IMG/VR virus record: IMGVR_UViG_2617271072_000004 | Span: 1 to 64,000 of that record | Length of the DNA: 64,000 nt | Strand: one strand, 5' to 3' | Source of the DNA: a virus | Lineage: Duplodnaviria; Heunggongvirae; Uroviricota; Caudoviricetes | Shown: piece by piece, positions 26,990 through 30,721 of the stretch | Numbering within the stretch: position 1 is the stretch's first letter | How the letters are laid out: every line of letters begins with the position of its first letter | Program-made: the position numbers and the translations under genes | Notes under the pieces: generated by a model | Seen by the model: only the letters and a program-made list of their open reading frames with translations | What the model was told of the DNA's origin: nothing | Databases searched by the model: none

Positions 26990-27178
26990 AGCGCCCCCTA
27001 CAAAAAAGAAAAGCCACCAGCGGCGGCTTAGCAATACAACTGAAGGTAGCGCCCGGTACTCAGACTGTGCCGTCCATGGAATATTTGAAAAGGGATCCAT
27101 CCGTACCGGGCGTGTGATGATTCTGACTGAAGTCACTTGTCAGTTGTCAATCATTTATCATTAAAAATAATATATTTA

Positions 27179-27439
27179 TTAGTGCATGATGTTTGCCATC
27201 TCATAGGCGTCAGCCAGTAACTCCATCTCTGACTTGTTCAGCAAGGTGAATTCTTTCTTGCCTCCAACCACACCATCGGCATGAACAGGGACCAGCCAGG
27301 GGTATTTTTCTCTTACTTCAGCCGGTGCTGCATGCTGGTGGTACCATCTACAAAGTGGCAACTGCTTTTTGTGACAACCCGGCGCGGTACGACCGGAGAT
27401 ATGGTGCAGAGACACCTCTTCAGATATTACTCCATGCAT
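27179..27439 (-). CDS. hypothetical ORF abutting the Tn3 truncation point
   Basis: 86-aa ORF; may be the remnant of a backbone gene. Confidence 0.3.
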   Translation of the reverse strand: MHGVISEEVSLHHISGRTAPGCHKKQLPLCRWYHQHAAPAEVREKYPWLVPVHADGVVGGKKEFTLLNKSEMELLADAYEMANIMH

Positions 27440-28458
27440 ATAGCAGGCAATGCAGGGGAGAGCGCCAATGCAGATTTATCCAGATCCTTCAGCGAGCGGA
27501 GCCGTTTTTTCTGCCCAATCTTTCTGGCGTCACGGATGATAACGGCCAGCATGGCGTCCAGAACGTCCAATGCATCATCCAGCGCCAGCGTTTCCCATGC
27601 AAGGACAAAGGCAACCAGAACCGCCATCCTTTTCTGCGGTGACATCCTGGCAATATTGAACACCGAAGTCATACCAGCATAACGTGCGAGATTTTTCAGG
27701 CGCACAGCCGGGAGTGTACTCAGGTTTTCAGCATGCAGGCCAAAATCGTTCAGAGTTTTCCAGCGTTCAATTGCTTCATTAAACGCCGGACCACTGATGG
27801 TCACAGGGCCCTTTTTCAGTGATTCCAGTAAAGACAGGCGGCTGCAATCAGTTGGCCCCAGCAGCATCTCCAGCTGTGAACGCTGTTCGGCTGACGGTAT
27901 CAGTGCCAGTTTGTTCCACAGGCGCAACGTCGCCTTTTCCCTTACCTCTGAAATCAACCGGGTCAGCGTAGTGGCTCCGGGGAGAATAATACGATGTTGC
28001 ATAAGCCACCCTGTCGCCAGATCGAAAAGCAGGCCAGGACGTTCGTTGCTTATCCAGCTCCGGGTATATAAAAGACGGGTAAGGCGAAATGTCCAGGGCC
28101 AGGCAAATTCACGATACTGATAGTGCTGACGTATCAGCGCTGCATGCTCACGGCGGGTATTTTCCCTCTGACCGTATTCTGCAAGAACGGTGATATCACG
28201 AATCCCGAGCTGTCTGGCGGTAAAATGCCGGACGCCGGAAGGAATATGATTCATATCGGTGAGGAAGGTGCCCAGAAAACGGACACATCCAATTTGCAGG
28301 GCAATGCCCAGACGGTTGTGATCACCTCTGCTTTTTCCGATAAATTCCTTGTCTGCTTCATCAAGGTGAAAATATCGTGCCAGCTGAAGCTCATCCGGTT
28401 CACCGGTGAATCTGCCATAGCTTTCAGTCTGCTCAGTGGTCAGAAAGTCAACGGGCAT
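27427..28458 (-). pseudogene. tnpA: Tn3 transposase, N-terminal ~340 aa only
   Basis: MPVDFLTTEQTESYGRFTGEPDELQLARYFHLDEADKEF... Full TnpA is ~1000 aa. Confidence 0.9.
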
Positions 28459-28622
28459 ATCGGCCTCCCTGCCTGACGGGCATTTAGTAACATTTTTTCC
28501 AACCGTACGAAATGTTATAAATTATCGGACATCGTAAAACTGTTACATTAATATGTCTATTAAATCGTAAATTTGTAATAATAGACATGAGTTGTCCGAT
28601 ATTCGATTTAAGGTACATTTTT
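28459..28622. promoter_or_regulatory. Tn3 res site and divergent tnpA/tnpR promoters
   Basis: TGTCTATTAAATCGTAAATTTGTAATAATAGACA-type resolvase binding repeats. Confidence 0.7.
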
Positions 28623-29180
28623 ATGCGACTTTTTGGTTACGCTCGGGTCTCAACCAGTCAGCAGTCTCTTGATCTTCAGGTCAGAGCACTCAAAGACGCA
28701 GGTGTGAAAGCAAACCGTATATTTACCGATAAGGCATCCGGCAGTTCAACAGACCGGGAAGGGCTGGATTTGCTGAGGATGAAGGTGGAGGAAGGTGATG
28801 TCATTCTGGTTAAGAAGCTCGACCGTCTTGGCCGCGACACTGCCGATATGATCCAACTGATAAAGGAATTTGACGCTCAGGGCGTGGCAGTCCGGTTCAT
28901 TGATGACGGGATCAGTACCGACGGTGATATGGGGCAAATGGTGGTCACCATCCTGTCGGCTGTGGCACAGGCTGAACGCCGGAGGATCCTAGAACGCACG
29001 AATGAGGGCCGACAGGAAGCAAAGCTGAAAGGAATCAAATTTGGCCGCAGGCGTACCGTGGACAGGAACGTCGTGCTGACGCTTCATCAGAAGGGCACTG
29101 GTGCAACGGAAATTGCTCATCAGCTCAGTATTGCCCGCTCCACGGTTTATAAAATTCTTGAAGACGAAAGGGCCTCGTGA
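28623..29180 (+). CDS. tnpR: Tn3 resolvase
   Basis: [19 protein letters not shown]...; 185 aa. Confidence 0.95.
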
Positions 29181-29353
29181 TACGATAGGTTAATGTCATG
29201 ATAATAATGGTTTCTTAGACGTCAGGTGGCACTTTTCGGGGAAATGTGCGCGGAACCCCTATTTGTTTATTTTTCTAAATACATTCAAATATGTATCCGC
29301 TCATGAGACAATAACCCTGGTAAATGCTTCAATAATATTGAAAAAGGAAGAGT

Positions 29354-30214
29354 ATGAGTATTCAACATTTTCGTGTCGCCCTTATTCCCTTTTTTGCGGC
29401 ATTTTGCCTTCCTGTTTTTGCTCACCCAGAAACGCTGGTGAAAGTAAAAGATGCTGAAGATCAGTTGGGTGCACGAGTGGGTTACATCGAACTGGATCTC
29501 AACAGCGGTAAGATCCTTGAGAGTTTTCGCCCCGAAGAACGTTTTCCAATGATGAGCACTTTTAAAGTTCTGCTATGTGGTGCGGTATTATCCCGTGTTG
29601 ACGCCGGGCAAGAGCAACTCGGTCGCCGCATACACTATTCTCAGAATGACTTGGTTGAGTACTCACCAGTCACAGAAAAGCATCTTACGGATGGCATGAC
29701 AGTAAGAGAATTATGCAGTGCTGCCATAACCATGAGTGATAACACTGCTGCCAACTTACTTCTGACAACGATCGGAGGACCGAAGGAGCTAACCGCTTTT
29801 TTGCACAACATGGGGGATCATGTAACTCGCCTTGATCGTTGGGAACCGGAGCTGAATGAAGCCATACCAAACGACGAGCGTGACACCACGATGCCTGCAG
29901 CAATGGCAACAACGTTGCGCAAACTATTAACTGGCGAACTACTTACTCTAGCTTCCCGGCAACAATTAATAGACTGGATGGAGGCGGATAAAGTTGCAGG
30001 ACCACTTCTGCGCTCGGCCCTTCCGGCTGGCTGGTTTATTGCTGATAAATCTGGAGCCGGTGAGCGTGGGTCTAGCGGTATCATTGCAGCACTGGGGCCA
30101 GATGGTAAGCCCTCCCGTATCGTAGTTATCTACACGACGGGGAGTCAGGCAACTATGGATGAACGAAATAGACAGATCGCTGAGATAGGTGCCTCACTGA
30201 TTAAGCATTGGTAA
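29354..30214 (+). CDS. blaTEM: TEM class A beta-lactamase with R244S (Ambler)
   Basis: 286 aa TEM sequence; codon 30074-30076 is AGC where TEM-1 has CGC; Q39, E104, R164, G238, M69, N276 as TEM-1. Confidence 0.95.
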
Positions 30215-30323
30215 CTGTCAGACCAAGTTTACTCATATATACTTTAGATTGATTTAAAACTTCATTTTTAATTTAAAAGGATCTAGGTGAAGATCCTTTT
30301 TGATAATCTCATGACCAAAATCC

Positions 30324-30361
30324 CTTAACGTGAGTTTTCGTTCCACTGAGCGTCAGACCCC
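30324..30361. repeat. Tn3 38-bp right terminal inverted repeat
   Basis: CTTAACGTGAGTTTTCGTTCCACTGAGCGTCAGACCCC. Confidence 0.9.
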
Positions 30362-30384
30362 AATACAAACCCGCTCTTTTGTGC

Positions 30385-30411
30385 AGCCTGGCTCCTTGCC
30401 AGGCTTTTTTA
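30385..30411 (+). terminator. rho-independent terminator just outside the Tn3 right end
   Basis: AGCCTGGC-TCCTT-GCCAGGCT followed by TTTTTTA. Confidence 0.55.
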
Positions 30412-30721
30412 TTTCATCATGGAAGCTGTTAACGCTTTGGATCTTGCTGAACTGATTGAAAGGGCATTGTTTACCTTACCCAGGAGTTCGCCAAATTCCG
30501 CCATCACTCTAGTAAGCCCGCGCCGCGCTTCCTCCTCCGTTGCATTCATCACAAAAATGTTCAGCACTCCGCATGCTTTTAACGGGGAACGCAACAGATA
30601 TCGAGTCGATATCAGGCATCCTATCGCTCAACTTTACGGTGACAATGACAGATGGTGACTGAATTTGAGAGCTTACAGACAGCACCACATATTTTCCGTC
30701 TATTTTGAAATCCTTCCGCAT
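30409..30721 (-). CDS. hypothetical C1-controlled small gene downstream of cre, two frames
   Basis: ORFs 30509-30721 and 30409-30594 overlap in different frames; operator-like site just upstream. Confidence 0.3.

Follow-up and report, generated by a model that had tools for sequence, protein, structure and literature searches.

A Tn2 remnant in a P1-like backbone

The 64,000-nucleotide (nt) stretch examined here (the window) comprises positions 1 to 64,000 of the IMG/VR virus record IMGVR_UViG_2617271072_000004. It aligns gap-free and at 100% identity with contig CBWN010000116.1 (96.7 kb) of Escherichia coli ISC7 (GCA_000529855.1), and an exact protein match, CDL28011.1, leads to the same strain. 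The feature of interest is a truncated transposon of the Tn3 family, at 27460-30361, which carries bla, tnpR and part of tnpA and is flanked on both sides by DNA of the P1 family. A preliminary description had recognized a Tn3-family transposon truncated at its left; the truncation stands, and the element itself is refined below to Tn2 from its identity to the copy in P7 and from residues of TnpR. Only the right-hand 2.9 kb of Tn2 is present, the left ~2 kb including the left terminal inverted repeat (IR) being absent. Window 27457-30361 aligns to Tn2 nt 2038-4950, with Tn2 nt 1-2040 lost. When the complete 4,950-bp Tn2 was compared by BLAST with the whole 64-kb window, nt 2038-4950 and an IR self-match were returned and no other Tn2 DNA.

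Read inward from its c8 side, the remnant begins with the right terminal IR (IRR; 30324-30361, minus strand), which matches the 38-bp Tn2 terminal repeat at 38/38 positions with 0 mismatches. Immediately outside it, in the c8-ref spacer of the P1 backbone, stands the pentamer AATAC (30362-30366), the surviving copy of a presumed 5-bp target site; in the transposon-free MH422554.1 the empty site consists of ...GGATGCGG, AATAC and AAACCCGCTC in direct succession. The partner copy of AATAC would have been deleted, the target-site duplication itself being presumed. Next come a complete bla gene (29354-30214, plus strand; 286 amino acids (aa); NF000531 blaTEM score 665, above the cut-off of 625) and an intact tnpR (28623-29180, plus strand), which encodes a serine resolvase of 185 aa with the domains PF00239 Resolvase and PF02796 HTH_7 and has 0 nucleotide differences from tnpR in the Tn2 of P7. 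The 164-bp AT-rich tnpA-tnpR intergenic region (28459-28622) holds res and the divergent tnpA and tnpR promoters, and is identical to that of Tn2 in P7 and pETEC4085 except for one additional T at 28493; this T lies in a T-run outside res site I and is lacking in every other member of the lineage described below. The TnpR/res module is thus complete in the remnant, and the earlier view that right IR, bla, tnpR and res are intact holds, with res matching the Tn2 copies bar the one erroneous T.

The transposase gene is represented by tnpA' (27460-28458, minus strand), codons 1-333 of the 1001-codon Tn2 transposase gene. Its open reading frame (ORF) runs for 343 codons, from 28458 to 27427, and ends in 10 foreign codons read out of frame from ref, with the stop at 27427-27429. 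The preliminary estimate of a stop after about 340 codons is therefore right for the ORF, although authentic TnpA accounts for only 333 of these, all identical in residue to full-length TnpA. Of the transposase domains, TnpA' retains the N-terminal DUF4158 DNA-binding region (PF13700) only, and it matches positions 2-314/954 of the NCBIfam Tn3 transposase model NF033527 with a score of 298, below the cut-off of 500. An in-frame fusion of TnpA' to Ref was considered and rejected, since the tnpA frame ends after the 10 foreign codons and differs from the frame of ref. A search of the 64 kb with the 38-bp pattern at <=3 mismatches (0 matches expected by chance) found no second IR besides that at 30324-30361, in agreement with the earlier report that a left IR is missing. 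Neither a full-length tnpA nor a left IR emerged when frame errors were allowed for, so the truncation is not a frame error. Of the components of a functional Tn2, res and TnpR are present; the second 38-bp IR and a DDE transposase of ~1001 aa are not.

Both flanks of the remnant belong to P1-family backbone, as established by megablast against phage and plasmid collections and by pairwise BLAST against fetched loci. Window 26466-27468 aligns to mat and the 3' part of ref in P1 and RCS47, and window 30362-32200 to P1 c8, cre and cra. Identity of the flanks to P1 and RCS47 is 95-99%; the mat side reaches 99.9% against MH422554.1, and to the left of 27460 the sequence agrees at 100% with ref in many P1-like plasmids. 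Genes for Cre, the C1 repressor and DarB are among the neighbours, and synteny with, and high identity to, the c1-cre-c8-ref-mat-lxc-darB region of P1 place the window with the P1-like phage-plasmids (Punavirus, IncY). Between the two flank matches, 469 bp of P1 backbone are absent (found by BLAST and counted from a three-way alignment); in the P1 annotation these hold the C1 operator Oref, the promoters P1ref and P2ref, and the first 271 nt of ref. What survives of this gene is ref' (27179-27468, minus strand), which by BLAST to P1, RCS47 and MH422554 corresponds to ref nt 272-561 (the 3' 290 nt), without promoter, operator or the 5' 271 nt. The 86-codon ORF at 27179-27439, previously placed in unrelated sequence, is in reality residues 101-186 of the P1 Ref nuclease, its start codon being the internal Met at residue 101. 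The ORF matches PF16786 RecA_dep_nuc (E=1e-37) and phrog_2321, 'Ref-like RecA filament endonuclease', at profile positions 101-186/186, and the names in its cluster include 'recombination enhancement function domain protein'.

Over its 2.9 kb (Tn2 nt 2041-4950), the remnant differs from the Tn2 copies of P7 and pETEC4085 at three places only, namely the additional T at 28493, a 9-bp deletion upstream of bla, and a C->A change at 30074. The P7 element has been described as Tn2 with blaTEM-1b (PMC6906374). Tn2 is frequently mis-annotated as Tn3, the main differences adjoining res (PMC4611040). Tn3 in the strict sense (blaTEM-1a) shares family and organization with the remnant, and TnpR of the window is identical to the Tn3 resolvase of PDB 5CY1 at 182/185 positions; however, 5CY1 has I3, I18 and I20 where the window has L3, L18 and V20, in the res-proximal part where Tn1, Tn2 and Tn3 differ. 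Likewise, vector-derived (Tn3) bla segments are 98.8-99.4% identical to the window, as against only three differences for the P7 copy. Because of these three differences from the Tn2 of P7 and the non-Tn3 residues of TnpR near res, we assign the element to Tn2, with a blaTEM-1b framework, and not to Tn3 in the strict sense, a typing based on the P7 and pETEC4085 copies and on TnpR residues rather than on the Tn2 reference AY123253 itself.

Origin and spread of the deletion junction

The BLAST match to P1 extends to 27468 and that to Tn2 begins at 27457, and the two overlap at a 9-bp microhomology, GAGCGCCAA, at 27460-27468. This 9-mer occurs both in ref (nt 272-280) and in tnpA (nt 991-999; Tn2 nt 2041-2049). 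A three-way alignment of the window, the transposon-free MH422554.1 and a complete Tn2 places the crossover inside GAGCGCCAA, with 27459 still the ref base (A) and not the Tn2 base (C); the junction had earlier been put at 27430-27450, which the alignment corrects. As a reconstruction, we placed Tn2 in silico at AATAC in the backbone of MH422554.1, as a presumed ancestor, and removed one copy of GAGCGCCAA together with the intervening DNA, 2,523 bp in all. The product and the window agree at every base within +-115 bp of the junction, a limit set by a lineage single-nucleotide polymorphism at 27343. The earlier suggestion of an adjacent deletion that removed the left ~2 kb and some neighbouring backbone is borne out by this exercise: Tn2 nt 1-2040 and 469 bp of backbone are gone, and the 2,523-bp reconstruction returns the observed sequence. 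In the 3 kb x 3 kb space of possible endpoints (~9 million pairs), 59 shared 9-mers occur against 35 expected by chance, and the probability of a random junction falling in a shared 9-mer is ~1e-5.

The history that we consider very probable is an insertion of Tn2, followed by a 2,523-bp deletion between 9-bp repeats and then by inheritance within a P1-like lineage. A complete 4,950-bp Tn2 with the blaTEM-1b framework would have entered the c8-ref spacer at AATAC, oriented so that bla and IRR faced c8 and cre. Later, a single deletion of 2,523 bp would have joined the two direct repeats of GAGCGCCAA, tnpA to ref. RecA-independent illegitimate recombination, by replication slippage or by annealing at short homologies, is the probable route, because a junction within a perfect short direct repeat is its signature. 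The event would have taken away tnpA codons 334-1001 (the whole catalytic DDE part), the left IR and the left copy of the target site, along with the 469 bp of backbone that hold Oref, P1ref, P2ref and the first 271 nt of ref. Thereafter the remnant would have been inherited vertically and through mosaic recombination of its flanks, on P1-like plasmids of ~97-99 kb, and in one sub-branch (E. coli ISC7 and ERR15207071) the now fixed bla would have gained R244S and a 9-bp deletion upstream.

Several points weigh against this history or limit how far it can be pressed. Searches of PLSDB, complete E. coli genomes, JGI metagenomes and IMG/VR for the predicted ancestral junction at the left IR (IRL), ATTGGATGCGGAATAC followed by GGGGTCTGACGCTCAG, gave no match, and hence no relative with a complete Tn2 at AATAC in the same orientation; with no ancestor found, the two steps are ones that we infer. 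Nor is GAGCGCCAA the longest repeat on offer, five 11-mers being common to the Tn2 left arm and the flank. The idea that the longest available microhomology was used is thus false, as shared 10- and 11-mers exist, and repeat length alone did not fix the site of the deletion. Our claim is accordingly that the junction appears to have been homology-guided, and not that the best repeat was chosen. The enzymology (slippage, annealing or another process) is likewise not readable from the sequence.

The same junction occurs well beyond the window. In the index of a public assembly collection, 40 blocks contain the 343-aa TnpA' in identical form, including the tail specific to the junction; 24 contigs were read. 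Carriers of the junction include NCBI OZ038748.1 (98.9 kb), JGI 3300028955 (98.1 kb), ENA ERR525917 from human gut (98.1 kb) and several Logan runs, and the gene order c1 - cre - c8 - bla - tnpR - tnpA' - ref' - mat is the same in 8/8 places shown. Carrier contigs are 98.9-99.95% identical to the window over 9-13 kb. They differ from it at a handful of sites across window 24-32 kb; the other differences are concentrated in darB (21.5-24 kb) and in the c1 immunity region (32.5-34.5 kb). Such a distribution is what one would expect if the junction arose once and the distal backbone was then exchanged in mosaic fashion around a conserved resistance segment. Recurrence of the junction in no fewer than 24 contigs, from gut metagenomes and from isolates other than ISC7, shows that it is not an artefact of assembly and identifies a lineage in circulation among E. 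coli isolates and in human-gut metagenomes. PLSDB contains no contiguous match to either junction, and complete E. coli genomes none to the left one. A search with the IRR junction found one JGI/ENA metagenome contig (OBWT01000037.1) and no contig in IMG/VR. In the open-access literature we found no description of this lineage, of E. coli ISC7, or of TEM-30 on P1-like elements. The sequence GGGGAGAGCGCCAATGCAG across the junction and the 343-aa TnpA' serve as markers.

Three other origins of the junction were weighed. The truncation might be the work of another mobile element, through an adjacent deletion by IS26 or IS1 or through intramolecular transposition of Tn2, or of recombination by TnpR or Cre, with the 9-bp repeat a coincidence. 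Truncation of Tn2 by insertion sequences (IS) is very common in resistance plasmids, IS26 being an example (PMC6906374, PMC4611040), and P1-like plasmids in the compared set carry IS1 and IS26. Nevertheless, the junction and its surroundings are free of IS, IR, res-like and lox-like sequences, and tnpA passes seamlessly into ref in a shared 9-mer; deletions by intramolecular transposition of Tn2 extend outward from an intact IR and could not have cut tnpA internally; and the chance of a coincidental 9-bp overlap is the small one calculated above. We regard this origin as quite improbable. Still less probable, in our estimate, is one-ended transposition, in which TnpA, provided in trans, would have recognized only IRR and have inserted a segment of variable length that ended within tnpA, no full copy ever having been at the site. 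Such transposition is documented for Tn3-family elements, a single IR is present, and the segment begins precisely at IRR. Against this, 469 bp of target backbone are lost, a loss that transposition, with its 5-bp duplication, does not cause; the segment's inner end falls within a 9-bp repeat that the target also contains, for which transposition has no need; and one-ended products are usually at least as long as the donor replicon. Least credible of all is a chimera assembled from collapsed reads of a multi-copy Tn2, the real plasmid having a complete element, for although errors are frequent in the ISC7 assembly, whose five private homopolymer indels interrupt cre and c8 and include the T at 28493, the exact 343-aa product recurs in at least 24 independently assembled contigs, including 98-kb contigs of complete length and metagenomes, and a 9-bp overlap is far below any assembler k-mer.

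Later changes and present state of the remnant

After the truncation of Tn2, the bla gene and the DNA upstream of it changed further. The C->A substitution at 30074 (codon 30074-30076, AGC) replaces Arg by Ser at precursor residue 241, which is R244S in Ambler numbering. The product is an exact match to NCBI TEM-30 (IRT-2, inhibitor-resistant) and is identical to TEM-1 at 285/286 positions; its best mature-chain match in the PDB is 1LHY, 'TEM 30'. As TEM-30 is TEM-1 with the single change R244S, the allele is assigned to TEM-30 and inhibitor resistance is predicted. The second change is the 9-bp deletion at 29177-29205 (plus strand), between the tnpR stop and the bla promoter, where CCTATTTTT, present in P7 and pETEC4085, is missing between 29184 and 29185. 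R244S and this deletion are common to the window and the ERR15207071 contig only, the latter without the extra T, and the other lineage members examined have TEM-1 and no 9-bp deletion. Since both mutations are in ERR15207071 and absent from other members, they are real and arose in the lineage after the truncation. The 9-bp deletion did not appear in any of the 5000 PLSDB records with the best matches.

A consensus scan indicates that the deletion creates a promoter-like GTGATA-17-GATAAT at 29177-29205, lacking in the undeleted relative; the scan is a weak one, as its threshold misses the real P3 promoter and 3 matches are expected by chance in the region. The deletion presumably removes Sutcliffe nt 31-39, counted from the start of bla with R244S taken as nt 929 to anchor the numbering. 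A C->T change at Sutcliffe nt 32, within the deleted stretch, creates the strong promoters Pa/Pb. Genes for inhibitor-resistant TEM (IRT) have been reported to be linked to strong promoters (bioRxiv 10.1101/2022.09.21.508968). That the 9-bp deletion upstream of TEM-30 could be a promoter-up change is only a hypothesis.

Owing to single-base indels at 30553, 31069, 31362 and 31692, most of them in homopolymers, cre reads as three ORFs (104, 122 and 108 aa) and c8 is shortened. Neither the near-identical ERR15207071 contig nor any other lineage member has these indels, and Cre there has 343 aa. We attribute the cre and c8 frameshifts and the T at 28493 to sequencing or assembly errors of the ISC7 draft and not to pseudogenization, and the frameshifts in this record should not be read as biology. 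The G->A change at 27343 in the ref remnant, found in the window and ERR15207071 only, predicts H133Y in what looks like a CxxC...CxxH zinc motif of the HNH nuclease Ref, and may reflect the decay of a gene that was already dead.

With a single IR and no catalytic transposase, the remnant presumably cannot transpose autonomously. The earlier conclusion that bla is immobilized is thus sound for autonomous transposition but not beyond it, as the gene still travels with, and is mobile through, the phage-plasmid itself. From the intact gene and promoter region, bla is predicted to be expressed still from its own promoter. On the plus strand at 30385-30405, in P1 backbone 24 bp past IRR, there is a terminator-like hairpin with a T-run; this putative terminator is positioned to halt read-through from bla before antisense entry into c8 and cre.

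TnpR presumably still keeps the divergent promoters repressed, and by acting at res it should be able to resolve dimers of the plasmid. One IR of a Tn3-family element can render a replicon immune to transposition and, with TnpA provided in trans, can also permit infrequent one-ended transposition. One might see the remnant as a retained, evolving module of a successful phage-plasmid lineage, in which TnpR/res provides a second system of dimer resolution beside Cre-lox, IRR (perhaps with the IR-binding N-terminal fragment TnpA') confers immunity to further Tn2 insertions, and the 9-bp deletion is an undescribed promoter-up change selected to offset a weaker TEM-30; taken together, these would turn a P1-like transducing phage into a vehicle for inhibitor-resistant TEM. 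We regard this combination as unlikely.

The locus is of modest practical and epidemiological value. Here a resistance gene that would no longer be transposable is nevertheless spreading and evolving, from TEM-1 to TEM-30, on a phage-plasmid, and an IRT allele is carried by a P1-like element. The junction and its 343-aa product are exact markers of one bla-carrying P1-like phage-plasmid lineage of human-gut E. coli.

One neighbouring gene also deserves mention. Between lxc and mat, at 25210-26250 (plus strand), the window encodes a 346-aa DUF2971 protein at a place where P1 has the type III res-mod genes and RCS47 has nothing. The protein matches the PADLOC candidate defence family PDC-S31 (E=2e-16) and phrog_1762 (function not assigned), and, occupying the restriction-modification slot of P1, it may be a defence gene.

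Comparison with other Tn2 insertions

The Tn2 of P7, historically Tn902 and annotated 'Tn3', shares IRR, the bla framework, tnpR, res and the 5' third of tnpA with the window, which lacks nt 1-2040 (IRL and the 3' two-thirds of tnpA) and has R244S and the 9-bp deletion. The P7 copy is complete and lies at the 3' end of ref with its IRR adjoining mat, whereas the remnant lies in the c8-ref spacer with its IRR adjoining c8, in the opposite orientation. The comparison with P7 that had been proposed at the outset therefore reveals a different insertion site and orientation, and descent from the same event is rejected. In pETEC4085 unnamed6 (NZ_CP122640.1), the only PLSDB record with 96% query coverage, a complete Tn2 is inside ref in the same orientation as in the window; it is rejected as an ancestor since its Tn2 is ~400 bp from the window IRR junction. 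The complete Tn2 of pTK3888_2 (NZ_AP044772.1, 7043-12002) comes as near as 1 bp to the window site, but its target-site duplication is GAATA and its orientation opposite, and it is rejected likewise. Next to its Tn2, pTK3888_2 also has a second Tn3-family element with a toxin-antitoxin pair. Given their other base positions or other orientation, and as all three are complete, the insertions in P7, pETEC4085 and pTK3888_2 are independent events, none of them ancestral to the remnant.

At least four independent Tn2 insertions have thus occurred in the c8-ref-mat interval, within ~700 bp of P1 backbone, which marks it as an insertion hotspot. Venturini et al. have drawn attention to an insertion junction, rich in AT, that lies between c8 and mat (PMC6906374). 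A further parallel is offered by the IS26-truncated Tn2 elements of multiresistance regions, which likewise keep bla, tnpR and IRR and lose IRL and the transposase (PMC6906374, PMC4611040). Unlike these, the remnant described here is the product of a plain deletion at a 9-bp repeat, with no IS. It is a common kind of transposon remnant and, as such, a new and base-precise instance of a well-known type of feature.

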